Shown: in pieces, positions 11,638 through 63,136 of the stretch
Layout: each line of letters begins with the position of its first letter
Numbering within the stretch: the first letter of the stretch is position 1
Assembly (NCBI GenBank): GCA_964587005.1
Contig: CAZPJW010000001.1
Coordinates: 11,986 to 75,985 of the forward strand
Length of the DNA stretch: 64,000 nt
Reading direction: 5' to 3'
Origin: Candidatus Woesearchaeota archaeon
GTDB taxonomy: Archaea; Nanobdellota; Nanobdellia; SCGC-AAA011-G17; PNOQ01
Position numbers and translations under genes: made by a program
Notes under the pieces: model-generated
Database searches by the model: none
Told to the model about the DNA's origin: nothing
Seen by the model: the letters and a program-made list of their open reading frames with translations, nothing else

Positions 11638-11652
11638 TTTTTTTATTAAAAA
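11638..11652. terminator. Oligo-T/oligo-A tract serving as a bidirectional archaeal terminator
   Basis: aatttttttattaaaaa lies directly after the stop of the + strand gene at 11637. It also lies directly after the 3' end of the minus-strand tRNA, giving a U5 run on the minus strand. Confidence 0.4.
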
Positions 11653-11778
11653 CGCCGGGACTGGGATTTGAACCCAGATGCCCGAAGGCCCGGTTTGCTC
11701 ACAATCTGATTCGAGATTCACCGATAATACAAATCATTGTAAAATCTCCGGTGCAATACCAGATTATGCGATCCCGGC
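11653..11778 (-). tRNA. Intron-containing tRNA (126 nt), class-II-like architecture; candidate tRNA-Ser(CGA); no encoded CCA
   Basis: Reverse-complement gives acceptor GCCGGGA / UCCCGGC (7 perfect bp) and discriminator G. D arm is GCA-UAAUCUGGUAU-UGC (3-bp stem, long loop with GG). T arm is CUGGG-UUCAAAU-CCCAG. A variable-arm hairpin GCC-UUCG-GGC precedes the T stem. The gene carries about 42 nt more than a mature class-II tRNA. A candidate anticodon loop CUCGAAU sits 37-43 nt after position 26. Exon-intron boundaries were not resolved by hand. Confidence 0.6.
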
Positions 11779-12445
11779 ATACGTATTAATTTTCATTCTT
11801 TTTACGGGATGATTAAACCCAATCAACCTTGCAAACTTTATAATATTTTCTTTTTCCGAAATAACCAAAATATAATTTGTATTCCAATTCTCATTTTTCC
11901 TTACATACATATAAAGATTAGAACTCACTCCAAGAGAAGCCAACAAAAACTTTATTTCTTCAATTCCAGATTTATTTACAGATTGTACATCTATCCTATT
12001 CTTTCCAACATATCCCTCACAATCATAAAAGGCTCTAATAAATTCAATCTTACATTCTCTAGACTCAAAAATAAATTTAGGAATTTCCCAGTTCAAAGTA
12101 CCAAACGTAGAAAGCTCTTTCAAATGAGAAGCAACAACTTTAGAATTAATGTTTACACTAAAATGATTGATCTCTTCCCTAATAGTGGGTACCTTACTAT
12201 AAATTTGACTGAATGTATCAACGTAAAGTTGAGCTAGTTCCAGCACATCTGGATAAAAAGAAATTATATATCTCATAGCATTTCTACTTTTCTCCTTACC
12301 AACAATCAAGCTACCATCACCAGCTAAAAAACCACAAAGTCTAGCTAATTTAATATCATCTGCATTTATCTTACTCTTTTCAAGTTCATGAATTTTCTTC
12401 CATCTTGAAATAGCAACATTCCTATTCCTCTCACAAATATCCATA
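11764..12445 (-). CDS. Double-motif LAGLIDADG homing endonuclease family protein (free-standing; stop codon inside the tRNA)
   Basis: Two LAGLIDADG-type motifs: LARLCGFLAGDGSL and FIRAFYDCEGYVG. Start trimmed to MDICERN (ATG at 12445), which sits about 20 nt downstream of a TATATAAAC box. The track ORF extends further 5' but would overlap aglB. The last five codons plus UAA are tRNA nt 1-15 (...TYAGIA*). Confidence 0.7.
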
Positions 12446-12465: not shown

Positions 12466-12506
12466 TTTATATACACTACGCCCGTACGTGGCAAGCTGGC
12501 AACTTA
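12466..12506 (-). promoter_or_regulatory. TATA box (12466-12474) plus conserved upstream 21-bp motif (12486-12506) of the LAGLIDADG gene
   Basis: Minus strand reads AAGTTGCCAGCTTGCCACGTAC, then 11 nt, then TATATAAAC, then 20 nt, then ATG. The same arrangement and a near-identical motif (AAGTTGTCATCTTGTCACGTAC) occur at 62444-62484 upstream of the second LAGLIDADG gene. Confidence 0.45.
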
Positions 12507-12553
12507 AAAAGAGCTTCAAAACATTTATATACCTTACCGAAATCCTATTCATA

Positions 12554-15082
12554 ATGGATGAATTAGAACTAAAATATGATTCTAAAAAAGTAAAAGAGTT
12601 TACAAAGAAATACGGAACAATTCTATTAATCTTAATCCCAATTTTCTTGGCAATATTCTTCAGAGCATACCCATATTCATTACCAATAACAGACCAAACA
12701 GCAAGAGATAGTATGGAAAACAACATAAAGGCACAAATACAAAACGAAATAATCACCCAAGCCCAAGATATAGATCAAAATACTCTAAACACTTTAACAA
12801 ATCAAAGATACCAATCATATGTTTCGGAAAATAAAGAAATAATAGAAGAACAAACAAAACTCCTCTCAGATCAAATAAAACAATTCTATAAAGACGATTC
12901 CGGACAAACATACTTACTAGCAATAGATCCCTATCATTATTTAAGACAAACAGATAACATTCTAGAAAACGGACACGTTGGCGATGAACTAATAGATGGA
13001 ACGCCTCATGACAACCATATGCTAGCACCAAACGGAAGAACTATGCATAACAGCTTCCATCCATACATAACAGCACAACTTCATAAAATTTCTCAAGTAT
13101 TTGGAAATGATTCAACTCTAAAAACCATATTTATAATCCCACTAATTTTCGCAGCATTAGCAGTTATTCCAGCATTTTTCATAACTAGAAAAATAACAGG
13201 AAAACTAGGTGCAACTGTAGCAGCAGTAACAGTAGCAATCCATCAATCATTCCTCGGAAGAACGCCTGCAGGATTTGCCGATACCGATGCATACACAATC
13301 TTCTTTCCCTTAGTTATAGTTTGGCTCTTCTTAGAATCTTTCACTAGAACAAATTCAAAACAAAAATATATTTTTGGGAGTCTTGCAGGATTAGCCACAG
13401 GACTCTTCGCATTTGCTTGGGGAGGATGGTGGTATTTATTTGATATATTGGTAGCAACATTAGGAATTTACTTCATATATTTATTAATAAAATACAAAAA
13501 AAACGTATTCAAAAAAATAAAAACAAAGAATCTCATAAAAACAACAATCTCTTACTTGGCATCTTCAACTTTATTTGTAATATTATTCACAAGTGTAGCG
13601 GACTTCTTAACATTTTATAGAAGCCCAATGGGTGTAATCTTCATAAAACAAGCAGCACACTCAACCCTATGGCCAAACGTATACACCACGGTAGCAGAAT
13701 TAAACACCATAACACTACCCCAAGTAATAAACGCACTTGGAGGAAAATTATTATTCGGAATAGCAGCACTAGGCATTTTACTAGTCTTCCTAAAGAAAAA
13801 GAAACTTCAAACAGAAATAAAATATGGAATTCTACTATTAGTGTGGTTCGCAGTTACTCTCTATACTTCAACAAAAGGAGCAAGGTTTGTAATGTACGCA
13901 GTTCCAATATTCGCAATAGGCTTGGGTATATTCTATGGAAGGATATATACTCTATTAACTAATTACGGTTCAAAAGAACTTGACCTAAACAAAAAATTAC
14001 TTTCAATAAGTCTAATCGTATTAACAATTCTTTCCTTTGTACCTATGGTCAAAACTGCACATCAAACAGCATTATATGAAGTACCTTCATTTACAGATTC
14101 ATGGTACACAGCATTAACAAAAATAAAAGAAGAAACTCCAGAAAATTCAATAGTAAATTCTTGGTGGGACTTTGGACACTGGTTCAAATACTGGACAGAT
14201 CGGGCAGTAACTTTCGATGGGGCCTCACAAGACACGCCGCCAGCACATTGGATTGGAAAAACTATGTTAACTAGTAACGAAGACGAATCAATAGCAATCT
14301 TGAGAATGTTAGACTGCGGAAGTAATGATGCATATGATTTATTACTTGAAGAATCAAACGACCCATTACTAACTAAAAAAACAATAGACAAAATCATATT
14401 ACAAGAAAAAAACACAGCAAAAAACACACTATTACAATACACAGATAATCCGGACCAAATACTAGAAAAAACTCACTGTCAACCACCAGAAGACTATTTC
14501 ATAACATCTGAAGACATGGTATCAAAAGCAGGAGTATGGGCACACTTTGGATCCTGGGATTTTGAAAGAGCATACGCATATAATACAGTTAAAGAAAACA
14601 ATAAAGAAACAGCAATAGCGCAACTACAAGAAAAACTAACTTACTCACAAGAAGAAGCAGAATCAACATTCAGACAATTAAATGGGTTAACTGACCAAGA
14701 AGCAAATCAGTGGATAGCACCATATCCTTCATATTCAAACATCGGGCAATGTTACGAACAAAATACTACAATAGCCTGTTCAAATGGAATAGTAATAGAA
14801 AACAACAGAGCATATGCACAATCAGAACAAGGCGCAATAGAAATAAAACATTACAGAGATGATAAGCAAATATACACTAGTGAAGAAGGAACAGAAGAAA
14901 TAGCAGTAGCATATGTCCCAAAATACCAAACAGTGATGATAATGGACCCAGCATTACTAGGAAGCACATTTACCGAGCTTTACTTCTATGAAGGACAAAA
15001 CTTAAATAATTTCGAGTTATTCGATTTCCAACAAGGAACTGATGGTTTTAGAATCTACACTTGGAAAGTAAAATGGACATAA
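12554..15082 (+). CDS. aglB: Archaeal oligosaccharyltransferase AglB (STT3 family)
   Basis: 13 N-terminal TM helices followed by a periplasmic domain carrying the WWDYG-type motif (SWWDFGHWFKYW). Start set at MDELELKYDSKK (12554) rather than the upstream in-frame ATG at 12488. Length about 840 aa. Confidence 0.85.
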   Translation: MDELELKYDSKKVKEFTKKYGTILLILIPIFLAIFFRAYPYSLPITDQTARDSMENNIKAQIQNEIITQAQDIDQNTLNTLTNQRYQSYVSENKEIIEEQTKLLSDQIKQFYKDDSGQTYLLAIDPYHYLRQTDNILENGHVGDELIDGTPHDNHMLAPNGRTMHNSFHPYITAQLHKISQVFGNDSTLKTIFIIPLIFAALAVIPAFFITRKITGKLGATVAAVTVAIHQSFLGRTPAGFADTDAYTIFFPLVIVWLFLESFTRTNSKQKYIFGSLAGLATGLFAFAWGGWWYLFDILVATLGIYFIYLLIKYKKNVFKKIKTKNLIKTTISYLASSTLFVILFTSVADFLTFYRSPMGVIFIKQAAHSTLWPNVYTTVAELNTITLPQVINALGGKLLFGIAALGILLVFLKKKKLQTEIKYGILLLVWFAVTLYTSTKGARFVMYAVPIFAIGLGIFYGRIYTLLTNYGSKELDLNKKLLSISLIVLTILSFVPMVKTAHQTALYEVPSFTDSWYTALTKIKEETPENSIVNSWWDFGHWFKYWTDRAVTFDGASQDTPPAHWIGKTMLTSNEDESIAILRMLDCGSNDAYDLLLEESNDPLLTKKTIDKIILQEKNTAKNTLLQYTDNPDQILEKTHCQPPEDYFITSEDMVSKAGVWAHFGSWDFERAYAYNTVKENNKETAIAQLQEKLTYSQEEAESTFRQLNGLTDQEANQWIAPYPSYSNIGQCYEQNTTIACSNGIVIENNRAYAQSEQGAIEIKHYRDDKQIYTSEEGTEEIAVAYVPKYQTVMIMDPALLGSTFTELYFYEGQNLNNFELFDFQQGTDGFRIYTWKVKWT

Positions 15083-26945: not shown

Positions 26946-28042
26946 TGAAAATTCCATTAGTTGATCTAAAAGCAAACTACGATTCAATAAAAGAGGAGAT
27001 AGACGAAACAATAAAACAAACGATAGATAATTCTACTTTTATTATGGGACAACCAGTAAAAGAGTTTGATAAAAACTGGGCAGAATATTGTAATTCACAA
27101 TTTTCATTTGGAGTAGCAAATGGAACAGAAGCAATAAGACTTTCACTAATAGCCTTAGGGATAAAACAAGGCGATGAAGTAATAACTTCTCCAAACACAT
27201 TCATAGCAACAACAGAAGCAATCTCATCACTGGGAGCAACTCCTGTTTTTGTAGATATAGACGAAACAACTTTCACAATAAATCCCGATTTAATAGAAGA
27301 AAAAATAACTCCAAGAACAAAAGCAATAATTCCTGTTCATTTATACGGACATCCATGCGATATGGAAAAAATAATAGAAATCGCAAGAAAAAGAGATATA
27401 AAAATCCTTGAAGACTGCGCACAATCTCACGGAGCAACATTCAAAGGCAAAAAAACAGGAACCCTTGGAAACATAGCTGGCTTCTCAATGTTCCCTGCAA
27501 AAATTTTGGGTGCTTTCGGAGACGCAGGAGCAATAATAACAGATGACGAAAGACTTGCTGAAAAAATAAATCTACTAAGAAATCACGGAAGATTTTCAAA
27601 ATATGAACATCTACAAGAAGGATTTAATTCAAGAATAGATGCACTTCAAGCAAACATTCTAAATGTAAAATTAAAACATCTTGATATTTGGATTGAAAAA
27701 AGAAGACAACTTGCAAGCAAATACAAAGAAGAACTATTAGAAGTTGTAACCTGTCCAAGAGAAAAAGACTGGGCAAAACATTCCTACTACATGTATGTCA
27801 TAAGAACAGAAAAAAGAGATGAATTAAAAGAATTTTTAGAACAAAATGAAATCTCTTGTCAAATCCATTACCCAATTCCTTTACATTTACAACCCGCATA
27901 CAAACATCTTAATTACAAAGAAGGAGATTTCCCAATAACAGAAAAAGTAGCAAAAGAAATTTTATCTATTCCTTTATACCCTGAATTAACAGAAGAACAA
28001 CAGAATTACATAATTTCTAAGATAAAGGACTTCTTTTCATAG
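26945..28042 (+). CDS. DegT/DnrJ/EryC1/StrS family PLP-dependent sugar aminotransferase
   Basis: Full-length family fold with MKIPLVDLKANY, the GDEVITSPNTFIAT block, and the FSMFPAKILGAFGDAGAI block containing the Schiff-base Lys region. Confidence 0.75.
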   Translation: MKIPLVDLKANYDSIKEEIDETIKQTIDNSTFIMGQPVKEFDKNWAEYCNSQFSFGVANGTEAIRLSLIALGIKQGDEVITSPNTFIATTEAISSLGATPVFVDIDETTFTINPDLIEEKITPRTKAIIPVHLYGHPCDMEKIIEIARKRDIKILEDCAQSHGATFKGKKTGTLGNIAGFSMFPAKILGAFGDAGAIITDDERLAEKINLLRNHGRFSKYEHLQEGFNSRIDALQANILNVKLKHLDIWIEKRRQLASKYKEELLEVVTCPREKDWAKHSYYMYVIRTEKRDELKEFLEQNEISCQIHYPIPLHLQPAYKHLNYKEGDFPITEKVAKEILSIPLYPELTEEQQNYIISKIKDFFS

Positions 28043-51290: not shown

Positions 51291-52374
51291 ACCGGACATA
51301 AGTGGAAATGAACTAAAATATTTAACAGAATGTATAGAAACTAATTGGATCTCCTCTTCAGGAAGTTTTGTAAAAAAGTTTGAAGAAAAGTTTGCAGAAT
51401 ATTGTGGAACAAAATACGCAACAAGCTGTAGCAATGGAACAGCGGCACTCCAATTATCATTACTAGCACTAGGAGTAAAGAAAGGCGATGAAGTAATAAC
51501 CCCAAATTTAACATTTGGAGCAACTGTGAGTGTAATAAAACATTGTAATGCCACTCCAATTCTAGCAGACATTGACAAAAAAACATGGAACATTTCTGGG
51601 AGGGAAATAGAGAGAAATATCACACCAAAAACAAAGGCAATAATGCCAGTACATTTATATGGAAATTCTTGTAATATGAAAGAAATCCAAGAAATCGCAC
51701 AAAAATATGATCTAAAAGTAATTGAAGATGCAGCAGAAGCTCACGGAGCGGAGTATGACTCAAAAAAAGTAGGGAGTATTGGAGATGTAGGATGCTTTAG
51801 TTTCTTTGGAAATAAAATCATAACAACTGGAGAAGGCGGAATCTGTACATCAAATGACAAAGAATTAATCAAAAAAATAGATCTTCTAAAAAATCATGGC
51901 ATGACTAAAGAAAAAAGATATTGGCATGACGTAATCGGTCACAATTTCAGACTAACAAATATCCAAGCAGCAATCGGATTAGCACAAATAGAAAAGATAG
52001 AAGAATTCAACAAAAAAAGAGATTCATTAGCAAAGTTATACAAAGAAAACCTAAAAAATTTAAGTGAGATAGAATTCCAAGAGATTACAGAAAATTCAAA
52101 ACCCGTTTATTGGATGTTTCCAATATCATTAACTGAAGATGCAAATATCAACGTAGATCAATTAGCAGAAAAATTAAGAGAAAATGGAATAGAAACAAGA
52201 AAAATATTCCACCCATTGCACAAAATGCCAGTATATCTTGACTTATCAGAATACCCCCATTCAGAACTAGTCTACAAAAAAGGGCTAATCCTGCCCATGC
52301 ATAACCTACTAAAAGAAGAACAAGTAAATTATATTTGCGAAACTCTAAAGAAAATAATCACCGGGTTCCACTAA
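51268..52374 (+). CDS. DegT-family aminotransferase, probable GDP-perosamine synthase
   Basis: Full DegT fold (GDEVITPNLTFGATVSVI...DAAEAHGAEY...FSFFGNKIITTGEGG). Position after gmd and the NUDIX gene fits GDP-4-keto-6-deoxymannose 4-aminotransferase. Confidence 0.7.
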   Translation: METIRIAEPDISGNELKYLTECIETNWISSSGSFVKKFEEKFAEYCGTKYATSCSNGTAALQLSLLALGVKKGDEVITPNLTFGATVSVIKHCNATPILADIDKKTWNISGREIERNITPKTKAIMPVHLYGNSCNMKEIQEIAQKYDLKVIEDAAEAHGAEYDSKKVGSIGDVGCFSFFGNKIITTGEGGICTSNDKELIKKIDLLKNHGMTKEKRYWHDVIGHNFRLTNIQAAIGLAQIEKIEEFNKKRDSLAKLYKENLKNLSEIEFQEITENSKPVYWMFPISLTEDANINVDQLAEKLRENGIETRKIFHPLHKMPVYLDLSEYPHSELVYKKGLILPMHNLLKEEQVNYICETLKKIITGFH

Positions 52375-60272: not shown

Positions 60273-61725
60273 AGATGTAAAGTTGTCTACGGGTGGCCCC
60301 TTAATTGCAATACTCAACCAAAAGGACGCACAAAGGCTAAATCTACAAGCACTAGATAGGATAAAAATAACTCGTGGTAAAAAAGAAGTAGTCGCAGCAG
60401 TAGACATATCAGAATCAACAGGAATAAAAAAGGGCCAAATAGGTTTATTCAAAGAACTTATAGAAGAACTTGAATTAAAGAAACCCATTCTATTAAAGAT
60501 TTCAACATCTCAAGTACCAGAATCAATTGAAATAATAAAAAAGAAATTAGACAAAAAAGAATTATCAAAGAAAGAAATTTTTATGGTAATTGATAATCTC
60601 ACAAAAAATGAACTAACAGAAATAGAAATAACTTATTTTGTATCATCCTGTTACCTAAATGGGTTAACCGATGATGAAACTAGATATTTAACTCAAGCAA
60701 TAGTAAAATATGGAGATAAATTAGACCTCAATAAAAAAATAATCGCAGATAAACATTGTATTGGGGGAATTCCTAATAACAGAACAACGATGCTTGTCGT
60801 ACCAATTGTAGCGGCCGCAGGAATCACTATGGTAAAAACAAGCTCTAGGTCAATAACTTCCCCTGCAGGAACAGCAGACACAATGGAGTCGCTAGCAAAA
60901 GTAGAATTCACAACCCCGGAAATAAAAAAAATAATAAAAAAAATAAACAGCTGCATAGTATGGGGCGGAGCAATAGATTTAGCAAATGCTGATGAGAAAC
61001 TAATCAAAGTTCGACACCCATTAAGAATAGATCCAAAAGGTTTAATGTTGGCCTCAATTTTGGCAAAAAAAGCTGCCGTAAATTCAACGCACTTATTAAT
61101 TGACATACCGATAGGAAAAACAGCAAAAATCCAAACAAAAAAGCAAGCAAAGTCATTAAAAAAACACTTTGAAAAACTGGGAAAACAACTAAAGATAAAA
61201 ACAAAGGTCATAATCACAAATGGATCCCAACCTATAGGAAATGGAATTGGTCCAAATCTAGAAGCAAGAGATGTTTTATACATATTAAGAAAAGATTCCC
61301 AAGCACCAAAAGACCTAGAAAATAAATCTATTACTATGGCAGATGAAATATTTAAAATCACAAAAACAAAAGCATCCGCTAAAGATATTTTAAATTCTGG
61401 AAAAGCATATCAAAAATTCATAGAAATAATAGGTGCGCAAAGAGGAAACTCAAAAATTAAGCCAACCGACCTAAAATTGGGAAAACTTCAATCCACTATT
61501 AAATCACCTAGGGCAGGAAAAGTAGTAGAAATAGATAACAGAAAAATATCTAAGATAGCAAGACTTGCTGGATCACCTTATGATAAAGAAGCAGGAGTAT
61601 ATTTAAATATAAAATTAAAAGATAAAATTAAAAAAAATCAACCACTAATGACAATCTACTCAAATTCTAAAGCAAAATTAAATTCTGCAAAATCTGAAGT
61701 TAAAGGCGCAATAAAAATAAAATAA
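60253..61725 (+). CDS. deoA: AMP phosphorylase (thymidine-phosphorylase family with N-terminal extension)
   Basis: N-terminal MITLKAKDVKLSTGGPLIAILNQKDAQ. Pyrimidine-nucleoside-phosphorylase core HCIGGIPNNRTTMLVVPIVAAAG...SSRSITSPAGTADTME. Start moved to the internal Met at 60253 to remove overlap with the permease. Confidence 0.75.
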   Translation: MITLKAKDVKLSTGGPLIAILNQKDAQRLNLQALDRIKITRGKKEVVAAVDISESTGIKKGQIGLFKELIEELELKKPILLKISTSQVPESIEIIKKKLDKKELSKKEIFMVIDNLTKNELTEIEITYFVSSCYLNGLTDDETRYLTQAIVKYGDKLDLNKKIIADKHCIGGIPNNRTTMLVVPIVAAAGITMVKTSSRSITSPAGTADTMESLAKVEFTTPEIKKIIKKINSCIVWGGAIDLANADEKLIKVRHPLRIDPKGLMLASILAKKAAVNSTHLLIDIPIGKTAKIQTKKQAKSLKKHFEKLGKQLKIKTKVIITNGSQPIGNGIGPNLEARDVLYILRKDSQAPKDLENKSITMADEIFKITKTKASAKDILNSGKAYQKFIEIIGAQRGNSKIKPTDLKLGKLQSTIKSPRAGKVVEIDNRKISKIARLAGSPYDKEAGVYLNIKLKDKIKKNQPLMTIYSNSKAKLNSAKSEVKGAIKIK

Positions 61726-61726
61726 A

Positions 61727-61854
61727 CGCCGGGACTGGGATTTGAACCCAGATGCCCTTTCGGGCCTGGCTAACCTGTGTATTATTTCAAGGCTTACACT
61801 TCAGAGAGACTAACTCAGCTGAATCAGTGCAATACCAGATTATGCGATCCCGGC
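61727..61854 (-). tRNA. Intron-containing tRNA (128 nt), paralog of 11653..11778; candidate tRNA-Ser(UGA); no encoded CCA
   Basis: First 27 nt (acceptor GCCGGGA, D arm) and last 31 nt (GGGCAU + T arm CUGGG-UUCAAAU-CCCAG + UCCCGGC + G73) are identical to the first tRNA. Variable-arm hairpin GCCC-GAAA-GGGC differs compensatorily from GCC-UUCG-GGC. Candidate anticodon loop CUUGAAA sits at the same offset (37-43 nt after position 26) as CUCGAAU in the paralog. Confidence 0.6.
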
Positions 61855-62422
61855 ATAAGTTTTGTAATACAACGCTACTTTCATCTATATTTAAATTTAA
61901 CTGATAAGAGAAATATTTATTTTTTTGTATAACATTTTTAACTTCCTTGTTAAATCCCCAAATCTCTTCAATCATATGACTCAATCCCAATAATAACTCC
62001 TTACTAGCCATATGGAAATGGAGATTTCCTCGCTTATTTAATCCTCCATCTGTTAAAAACAAACCAAGAAAAAAAGATTTCTTAATGTCCTTATTTGCTT
62101 TAAGTATCAACTCCGGAACCTTTACTATTGCAGCTTTTTTGCCGAATGGAATTCCAATATTATAAACAAGATAATCAAAGATAGGTTTGGAGTAAATACG
62201 AAATTCATAAAGTATTTTTTTATTTGGCCTATGTCTTGAGTTTATCTTACCCTTTGACCCAAATAACTCAGAGTTAAGGTTTGAGAATAAATCTACATAT
62301 TCCCTCCGGGTATTCCAAAAAGCAATTGAATAAGTAGGATATCCAAAACCATTTTTTCTGTTTGATATAGAACCATCTCCAACAAGCATACCTAAAAATA
62401 AAGCCAGTTTATTCAAATCCAT
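61787..62422 (-). CDS. Double-motif LAGLIDADG homing endonuclease family protein; C-terminal 22 codons read through the tRNA
   Basis: Motifs LALFLGMLVGDGSI and FFLGLFLTDGGL. ATG at 62422 is 21 nt downstream of TTTATAAAC. The ORF terminates at a UGA formed by tRNA nt 66-68, in a different frame from the first cassette. Confidence 0.65.
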   Translation of the reverse strand: MDLNKLALFLGMLVGDGSISNRKNGFGYPTYSIAFWNTRREYVDLFSNLNSELFGSKGKINSRHRPNKKILYEFRIYSKPIFDYLVYNIGIPFGKKAAIVKVPELILKANKDIKKSFFLGLFLTDGGLNKRGNLHFHMASKELLLGLSHMIEEIWGFNKEVKNVIQKNKYFSYQLNLNIDESSVVLQNLCRDRIIWYCTDSAELVSLKCKP

Positions 62423-62443: not shown

Positions 62444-62484
62444 GTTTATAAATTATTTCTCTGTACGTGACAAGATGACAACTT
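62444..62484 (-). promoter_or_regulatory. TATA box (62444-62452) plus conserved upstream 22-bp motif (62463-62484), copy 2
   Basis: Minus strand reads AAGTTGTCATCTTGTCACGTAC, then 10 nt, then TTTATAAAC, then 21 nt, then ATG. Same spacing as at 12466-12506. Contains a direct hexamer repeat TTGTCA-TC-TTGTCA (TTGCCA-GC-TTGCCA in copy 1). Confidence 0.45.
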
Positions 62485-63136
62485 ACAAAACGCCCATAAT
62501 GTGATATGTCAAAGCAGTTCCAATTTTTATAGGATTATCTCCACTTTCAAATTCGGCAACAACACAATAATCATTCCCCTTATAAATTTGATTTGCACTT
62601 CCTTCTTTAAACCAAATAACAAACCTATTCTCATTAGCATTATTACATGTAAGAACAGGTAACTTTAATTCTCTAGTCCGTTCATTATCCTCAATAGAAG
62701 CCAATAAAGTAGGTATATTAAACGGAGCAGGTTCCAACATCTTCTGTCCAACAACCCTTTCAACAGTTAAAAGAGCAACAATCATTTTATTTTCATTTTC
62801 CAAGTCCAAATAAACATCCCTTGTAATATAAATGCTCTTAGCATTCTGAATATCATATCTAACCTTCTCAATAGGAATATCTTCCAACTCTTCAGGACCA
62901 TATTCAAAAGGAATTAAATATTTCTGCCAAAAATACCCAAATAATTTTTCATATTGCAAAATATGTACTTCATTCCCAGTGTGTTTGTCTAAAATAAAAT
63001 CAAAATCTGCAGTGACTCCTCCATAAATATATTCTGAATTTGTTCTGGAGTATATAGTATAGGTAACAGCAAAAGCAACAATAAATACAAGAACTATAAG
63101 GACTGCTGCTATAGATTTTTCTTGTTTTTTATCCAT
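62483..63136 (-). CDS. Small N-terminally anchored secreted protein (paralog pair, member 1)
   Basis: 217 aa. K/E-rich N-terminus then TM (IAAVLIVLVFIVAFAVTYTIY). C-terminus ...ALTYHIMGVL resembles the neighbour's ...GLFYKILGVI. Confidence 0.45.
   Translation of the reverse strand: MDKKQEKSIAAVLIVLVFIVAFAVTYTIYSRTNSEYIYGGVTADFDFILDKHTGNEVHILQYEKLFGYFWQKYLIPFEYGPEELEDIPIEKVRYDIQNAKSIYITRDVYLDLENENKMIVALLTVERVVGQKMLEPAPFNIPTLLASIEDNERTRELKLPVLTCNNANENRFVIWFKEGSANQIYKGNDYCVVAEFESGDNPIKIGTALTYHIMGVL

Follow-up and report, generated by a model that had tools for sequence, protein, structure and literature searches.

A tandem direct repeat upstream of two LAGLIDADG endonuclease promoters in a woesearchaeote as a likely regulator site, with counterparts at recombination and repair genes of related archaea

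Two LAGLIDADG endonuclease genes on a 64-kb stretch of DNA from a Candidatus Woesearchaeota archaeon (the window, meaning the whole stretch that was analysed) are preceded by nearly the same short sequence, and the locus therefore raises the question of what that sequence is for. An earlier note on this DNA had described a 21-22 bp direct-repeat motif upstream of both genes and had offered three readings of it, namely an operator, the boundary of a cassette, or the endonucleases' own recognition or cleavage site. We confirmed the repeat, at the positions where the note had placed it, as two 22-nt copies that are identical at 19 of 22 positions (Table 1). Copy 1 consists of two 8-bp direct repeats followed by YGNAC, and the mismatches between the copies fall at hexamer position 4 in both repeats and at one spacer base. 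When the 22-mer was searched with up to three mismatches, the two copies were the sole matches in the window, and no match was found in 100 dinucleotide-preserving shuffles of it. The hexamer core TTGYCA-NN-TTGYCA, searched with up to one mismatch, was found twice in the window against 1.5 occurrences expected, which is not significant alone; the significance is thus carried by the full 22-mer and its context.

The context is that of a promoter. For both copies the distance between motif and TATA box is exactly 10 nt, the interval being a purine-rich spacer in the position of a BRE, and the ATG follows the TATA box at 21 or 22 nt, as the note had it, so that the motif occupies positions -61 to -40 relative to the endonuclease ATG. 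Since a TATA-to-ATG distance of 21-22 nt conforms to standard archaeal promoter geometry, the two endonuclease mRNAs are probably leaderless or near-leaderless. Copy 1 also lies 49 nt from the divergent aglB start (ATG at 12554), where about 50 nt had been estimated, and copy 2 does overlap the TAA stop codon of the ORF at 62483-63136. Comparison with the Rfam models gave no match over the motif, the downstream tRNA model alone matching, and an RNA element or group I intron was rejected as the identity of the motif on these grounds. All group I introns that have been reported from archaea interrupt rRNA genes (PMC6125680).

Table 1. Positions of the motif copies, promoter elements, endonuclease genes and tRNA-Ser genes in the window
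Feature	Sequence	Position	Strand	Remarks
Motif copy 1	AAGTTGCCAGCTTGCCACGTAC	12484-12505	minus	AAG-TTGCCA-GC-TTGCCA-CGTAC; kept in orthologous loci L087, L090, L093
Spacer, 10 nt, purine-rich, in BRE position (copy 1)	GGGCGTAGTG	12474-12483	minus	
TATA box of LAGLIDADG gene 1	TATATAAA	12466-12473	minus	21 nt before ATG at 12444
LAGLIDADG gene 1		11764-12444	minus	226 aa; PF14528; last 15 nt overlap tRNA-Ser(CGA) gene
tRNA-Ser(CGA)		11653-11778	minus	Rfam RF00005, 39.2 bits with a 60-nt insertion; ARAGORN call after intron removal
tRNA-Ser(CGA), intron		11717-11747	minus	31 nt, position 30/31
tRNA-Ser(CGA), intron		11696-11709	minus	14 nt, position 37/38
TATA box of divergent aglB		12524-12531	plus	18 nt from other end of copy 1; non-canonical spacing, context only
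Motif copy 2	AAGTTGTCATCTTGTCACGTAC	62463-62484	minus	AAG-TTGTCA-TC-TTGTCA-CGTAC; kept in orthologous loci L095, L097, L099
Spacer, 10 nt, purine-rich, in BRE position (copy 2)	AGAGAAATAA	62453-62462	minus	
TATA box of LAGLIDADG gene 2	TTTATAAA	62445-62452	minus	22 nt before ATG at 62422
LAGLIDADG gene 2		61787-62422	minus	211 aa; PF14528/PF03161; last 68 nt within tRNA-Ser(TGA) gene
tRNA-Ser(TGA)		61727-61854	minus	ARAGORN call after intron removal
tRNA-Ser(TGA), intron		61794-61824	minus	31 nt, position 29/30
tRNA-Ser(TGA), intron		61771-61784	minus	14 nt, position 37/38 or 38/39

The two endonucleases themselves are quite dissimilar, being alignable over 62 residues only with 35% identity. 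Among 32 homologues, residues G42-D43-G44 and E143 of the gene 1 product do not vary; they include, for each of the two LAGLIDADG motifs, the catalytic acidic residue (Asp and Glu). Profile matches of the gene 1 product include PI-PfuI (2e-21) and I-DmoI as the closest solved structures. From these invariant catalytic residues and profile matches, both proteins look like active two-domain homing endonucleases. The exact gene 1 protein is present on metagenomic contigs, and homologues were found in Woesearchaeota, Pacearchaeota, Micrarchaeota, Iainarchaeum and other DPANN MAGs.

Orthologous loci provided a phylogenetic footprint of the motif. Those of gene 1 retain the divergent aglB neighbour and the downstream tRNA-Ser, and carry the motif 10 nt before TWTATAA at amino acid identities of 63% (L087, CTTGTCAGCTTGTCATGTAC), 62% (L090, GCTTGTCAGCTTGCCATGCGC) and 56% (L093, ATTGTTGCTTGCCATGTAC); those of gene 2 carry it 10 nt before TTTATAA at identities of 69% (L097, AACTTGACAACTTGTCACGCAC), 63% (L095, GGTGTCAGCTTGTCATTGAC) and 61% (L099, TTTGACAAGTTGACATGGAC). 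The footprint TTGNCA-NN-TTGNCA-YG-NAC is kept in seven orthologous loci of the two genes while spacer and leader diverge, which bears out the earlier suggestion that the motif is under separate constraint, and the three positions that differ between the window copies are exactly the degenerate positions of the footprint. The accompanying statement that the flanks are not conserved was wrong, as two near-identical blocks (95% and 100%) lie directly downstream of both ORFs. The closest relative of gene 1 (L094, 73% amino acid identity) has a different upstream neighbour and no motif, from which it follows that the motif is dispensable for keeping the endonuclease gene.

Further copies were sought by scanning public metagenome contigs with the pattern TTGNCANNTTGNCANNNAC-N10-TWTATAA. 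The scan returned 94 matches, 68 of them unique, about 40 of which score as high-confidence; we estimate that 10-25 of the 68 unique sites may be due to chance, the remainder beyond the 40 being close to the chance expectation. The sites occur at about one per 30-60 kb on long contigs, and the contigs stem from marine oxygen-minimum samples. Positions left unconstrained by the pattern depart strongly from background, with C in 47/69 at -1 and in 46/69 at +7 and G in 37/69 at +15, and the repeat unit is therefore CTTGNCA, present twice with an 8-bp period. In the same family matrix, two BRE-like positions, 4 and 6 nt upstream of the TATA box, have A in 44/69 each. Many of the sites have an ATG 22-24 nt past the TATA box, which fits genuine leaderless promoters. 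As the pattern imposed the TATA context, the scan tests the fixed spacing only partly independently. Among 1.1 Mb of DNA from retrieved loci, every real-looking core match had a TATA box at the same offset and three chance-like matches had none, and the 10-nt spacing was also seen at extra sites that had not been chosen for spacing (L090 and L183 +5311).

The high-confidence sites precede at least eight gene families. LAGLIDADG genes of several subfamilies account for 14-16 of them, many followed by a tRNA, and at least four of these subfamilies are further to those of the window genes. An operon of an 83-aa PUR-like protein and RadA (Pfam Rad51 PF08423, E 1.6e-92, plus HHH_5) is preceded by the site in seven distinct versions from seven genomes. 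Three sites lie before Hef-like helicases (DEAD, RNA_helicase_helical and Helicase_C), at least five before small KxYxEWE proteins, with a ~195-aa calcineurin-like phosphoesterase next where enough sequence remains, two before PIN proteins (toxins) and one before a C5 DNA methylase; the sites at HicA, GIY-YIG, CYTH and Lhr-like genes are of low confidence. Upstream of 26 unique ordinary tRNA genes from these contigs the motif was absent throughout, and a general tRNA promoter element captured by the endonuclease was rejected on that count. A viral or plasmid promoter was likewise rejected, given that the same pattern had no match in 2.9 million viral contigs and that the sites lie on 100-kb chromosomal-looking contigs.

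Three radA operons were retrieved by identity to homologues of the 83-aa protein, a route in which the motif was not used. Two of the three, both from close lineages, carry the motif (tTTGTCATATTGTCATAGGC and gcTTGCCAGCTTGCCAAACAC) 10 nt before TTTATAAA. In the most distant of them (46% identity) a similar position is taken by another tandem repeat, CTTCTCAcaTTTCTCAcc, at 13 instead of 10 nt from the TATA box (L197/L198, ~1400-1440), which looks like a co-evolving pair of site and regulator. Recombinase and repair genes thus carry the site in seven scan-derived and two independently retrieved lineages for the PUR-like protein with radA, and in three cases for Hef-like helicases.

Conservation in orthologues, a constant position and orientation with respect to the TATA box, and recurrence at several unlinked promoters are what is expected of a transcription-factor site, and the operator reading of the earlier note is supported by a footprint of fixed TATA spacing that is found in relatives at many unlinked promoters of unrelated genes as well. 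We consider it rather more probable than an even chance that the motif is a cis-regulatory site, either a UAS or an operator, of both LAGLIDADG promoters and belongs to a repair-type promoter set of the relatives. The set is documented in the relatives' contigs; the window itself contributes the two endonuclease promoters only. Mechanistically, two head-to-tail 8-bp units, (C/G)TTGNCA(N) and then YGNAC, end 10 bp upstream of the TATA box, just above the BRE, where a single trans-acting factor could bind the repeats as tandem protomers and control the recruitment of TBP and TFB. In this Woesearchaeota-like lineage the core of the promoter set is recombination and repair, in the form of the PUR-like protein and RadA operon, the Hef-like helicase and the metallophosphoesterase operon, and the set also takes in many selfish nuclease and toxin genes. 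Homing endonucleases would in this way be produced alongside RadA, the recombinase by which the breaks they make are repaired; alternatively, a damage or stress response may be exploited by selfish genes. Archaeal activators usually bind just above the BRE, and the place of the motif suits an activator better than a repressor, although occlusion by a repressor is possible. A candidate for the regulator is a motif-preceded protein of 151 aa (L183), in which a winged-helix-like pattern was seen by eye in the C-terminal part and which has no Pfam match. Further candidates are the PUR-like 83-aa protein, paralogues of Orc1/Cdc6, and proteins of the WYL or wHTH type.

A regulator site has to be weighed against a variant core-promoter element, in which the repeats would be read by a basal factor, such as a second TFB or TBP paralogue or a TFE-like factor, and would define an alternative promoter class. 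The strictly fixed TATA distance and the fixed orientation agree with this, and a density of about one site per 30-60 kb would suit a small class of alternative promoters. TFB contacts the BRE directly adjacent to the TATA box, as is established for archaeal promoter architecture, whereas the motif spans the interval from 10 to 31 bp upstream of the TATA box, out of reach of that contact. Moreover, the motif is not the BRE itself, as it ends 10 nt upstream of the TATA box and a separate A-rich signal in BRE position lies in between, and a tandem direct repeat is typical of regulator sites. We regard a core-promoter class as unlikely.

In function the proposed regulator site comes closest to archaeal UAS elements and to operators of DNA-damage regulons, and in sequence the motif differs from all of them. 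Archaeal UAS elements just upstream of the BRE and TATA box include the GvpE-responsive element of haloarchaeal gas-vesicle promoters and the Ptr2 sites of Methanocaldococcus. Shared with these are short repeated units at a fixed spacing above BRE and TATA, in a single orientation to the gene; the sequence is unrelated, the motif occurs in uncultivated DPANN archaea, and the regulon comprises recombination, repair and selfish nucleases rather than metabolism or gas vesicles. An ORB/Orc1-like resemblance of CCACTGGACA was also considered, and the core of the mycobacterial RecA-NDp promoter motif, tTGTCRgtg, is superficially like TTGTCAG of the present motif. In Sulfolobales, a DNA-damage-responsive element with the sequence 5'-ANTTTC-3' is bound by Orc1-2 and sits -23 to -55 from the ATG of a regulon that includes ups, ced and tfb3, with radA and homing endonucleases not reported there (PMC6061795). 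It is likewise a short non-palindromic promoter element common to damage and repair genes, with an activator near the core promoter, but it is a hexamer of other sequence and position as opposed to the tandem 8-mer described here, and ANTTTC is absent from the motif sequence. The RecA-NDp motif, used by PafBC in mycobacteria (PMC6789036), is also non-palindromic and promoter-embedded, and shares with the LexA SOS box a recombinase gene as hallmark member (recA there, radA here) together with the common co-regulation of mobile-element and toxin genes. Both belong to bacterial sigma-factor promoters and not to archaeal TATA/BRE promoters, and the likeness in sequence may serve as a lead.

The blocks downstream of both ORFs led to a second feature of these loci. 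The block at 11751-11787 and 61827-61863 (95% identical) and the block at 11650-11683 and 61724-61757 (100% identical), which make up repeat families D16 and D20, are the 5' (~35 nt) and 3' (~34 nt) parts of two tRNA-Ser genes with identical acceptor, D and T arms. A default ARAGORN run and an Rfam gathering scan of the whole window both missed these genes; their introns were parsed by hand, and the spliced sequences, re-scanned with ARAGORN, gave perfect cloverleaves. The 14-nt introns, which adjoin the anticodon, can be drawn by eye as a bulge-helix-bulge, with, at locus 1, the helix CTCG/TGAG and 3-nt bulges AA|T and CA|A. In the L094 locus, the tRNA-Ser(CGA) gene is without the first intron (CCGGTCTCGAA being contiguous).

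The arrangement is not confined to the window. In 55 of about 70 usable genome loci (L007-L086) from DPANN phyla, a LAGLIDADG gene is followed by a tRNA-Ser gene (CGA, GGA or TGA) within -75 to +48 nt, and 35 of 53 adjacent tRNA genes are longer than 92 nt, a length that implies an intron. At no fewer than 14 loci, among them L042 (2418-2460), L044, L009, L016 and L031, an orphan 5' tRNA fragment comprising acceptor and D-arm lies just upstream of the endonuclease promoter. In the loci with tRNA-Ser(GGA) (L029, L038, L041, L057, L058, L062 and others) the ORF ends with GGTTTATAA and the tRNA starts 24-28 nt later, so that the stop codon is the TAA within the TATA box of the downstream tRNA. 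The arrangement suggests that free-standing endonucleases may insert into tRNA genes, supplying a new 5' part, and that the short introns may protect the resident copy. A parallel is the collaborative (trans) homing of phages (PMC3984707), in which a free-standing endonuclease likewise lies beside a host gene whose ORF-less introns split the probable target. The hosts here differ in being archaeal tRNA-Ser genes with archaeal tRNA (BHB)-type introns, and the orphan tRNA 5' stubs suggest that the cassette brings a replacement 5' part; the comparison concerns the regulated genes and not the function of the motif. Our literature searches found neither this motif nor a LAGLIDADG-tRNA linkage in DPANN archaea described.

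The orphan stubs bear on the possibility that the motif is a relic or border of a mobile cassette, that is, a displaced 5' remnant of tRNA-Ser or a junction scar kept by descent or gene conversion. They lie at -70 to -43 from the ATG in other DPANN loci, which matches the place of the motif in the window, and copy 1 contains GCCAGCTTGCCA, resembling GCCAGCGTGCCA at the 5' end of some tRNA-Ser genes. True stubs align with scores of 26-48 against shuffle maxima of 26 or less, whereas the motif, aligned locally with 55 tRNA-Ser 5' ends, scores 20 at best and its shuffles reach 24. The conserved pattern is a repeated TTG.CA, unlike that of a decaying tRNA, and the same element stands before radA, helicase and phosphoesterase genes with no tRNA nearby; it is these non-endonuclease sites that largely refute the relic reading. 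A tRNA-stub origin was accordingly rejected as the cause of conservation, the likeness in position remaining, and we give a relic only a small chance.

Other DPANN lineages allow stub and element to be told apart. Upstream of 80 genome-derived homologues of gene 1 the hexamers of the window are absent, and these lineages carry other elements instead (CACTGGACA and CACAAGACAA), many in the form of a single or double CC-AC(T/A)(G/A)GACA-(A/T) located 13-15 nt before the TATA box. An orphan tRNA stub directly adjoins the analogous element in L042 and L009, and in L042 the two are adjacent yet distinct, a further point against a relic, which makes the element the first part of the endonuclease expression unit. 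The cassette-boundary reading of the earlier note is therefore supported weakly or in part: such an element can abut a tRNA stub, yet it is a promoter element and not a junction scar. The single-copy element CCAC(T/A)(G/A)GACAA, located 13-14 nt before the TATA box, was also found before an orthologous Cas4/Dna2-like PD-(D/E)XK nuclease (PF12705, E 7e-29) in two genomes (L038, minus strand, 394; L029, minus strand, 567), and before the codons for residues 1-28 of a Y-family polymerase (L011, 5567-5720; PF00817, 26 bits, above the cut-off). These few cases, obtained with an 8-mer query, are suggestive of a lineage-drifting element that may be common to endonuclease and repair genes. An origin of the element in the anticodon loop (CTGGAAA or CTTGAAA compared with CTGGACA or CTTGACA) is attractive in L042 and was rejected, as the element does not track which anticodon the neighbouring tRNA has, a CGA tRNA standing beside CACAAGACAA in L037, and the element also occurs at the nuclease and polymerase genes without a tRNA.

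It is very improbable that the motif is a site, or half-site, which the encoded endonucleases recognise or cleave, possibly for autoregulation: its ~22 bp equal the length of a LAGLIDADG site, it adjoins the endonuclease genes, and LAGLIDADG-derived regulators such as WhiA exist, to which gene 2 has a faint match (E 0.0057), but so dissimilar a pair of enzymes shares a nearly identical motif, the same motif stands before the further LAGLIDADG subfamilies and many non-endonuclease genes, insertion should have split a homing site that is here intact and more than 40 bp from the ORF, and real nucleases, as the conserved catalytic residues imply, would cut their own promoter.

Returning to the motif as a regulator site, it can be combined with the tRNA linkage into a wider proposal, which we put forward tentatively and consider possible at well under an even chance: in these genome-reduced archaea the endonuclease genes would be wired into the RadA regulon, and free-standing LAGLIDADG endonucleases would have a new lifestyle, colonising tRNA genes with a replacement 5' part and travelling with ORF-less introns that shield the resident gene. 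If this is true, selfish genes that cut DNA are switched on together with a recombinase through which their breaks are both healed and copied, and the spread of archaeal tRNA introns acquires a concrete mechanism. How these introns spread is an old question, which becomes directly testable through the systematic association of LAGLIDADG genes with tRNA genes that have introns and orphan stubs. As a promoter-proximal regulator site the element is of a known kind, and its regulon is an unusually interesting one. To our knowledge, there is no information on how DPANN archaea regulate transcription or respond to DNA damage, and we know of no LexA-like system in archaea outside the Orc1-2 pathway of Sulfolobales. 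The element, present at radA, at the gene of the Hef-like helicase and at dozens of genes for homing endonucleases and toxins, would, if confirmed, constitute a candidate repair and recombination regulon for the DPANN superphylum; it would show selfish nucleases borrowing a control circuit of host recombination, which bears on the timing and tolerance of homing. A defined element also offers a handle, by DNA affinity capture, for finding the regulator.

Several observations on the motif-driven units and on the window were made in passing. The first gene of the radA operon (L112, L124, L126, L128, L173, L199 and L201) always encodes a Woesearchaeota-restricted protein of 79-90 aa, for which a PUR/Whirly/PC4-like fold is predicted, and in the operon leader of 64-104 nt a hairpin around GAAATAAG is conserved; in three loci the operon is directly preceded by RPA and YdjM genes. 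In another unit (L166, L168, L174, L196, L109, L145 and L183 +5311), a 35-47 aa protein of the pattern KxYxEWE...AQFW is followed by the ~195-aa metallophosphoesterase, and sometimes a tiny second ORF lies between the small protein and the calcineurin-like enzyme. Within the window, a long same-strand cluster of glycosyltransferase and sugar-modifying genes adjoins aglB (~15000-60000) and contains the paralogous segments 27119-27435 and 51433-51749, with 74-76% DNA identity (repeat families D1 and D4). Finally, on the plus strand of L171 (~1940-2450), a tRNA-Gln(CTG)-like gene comes after the motif and a TATA box, a second TATA-like box lying 25 nt before the tRNA. An intron of ~390 nt with a 115-aa HNH-like ORF splits the anticodon arm of this gene, and it seems unusual for an archaeal tRNA gene to have an intron that bears an ORF.
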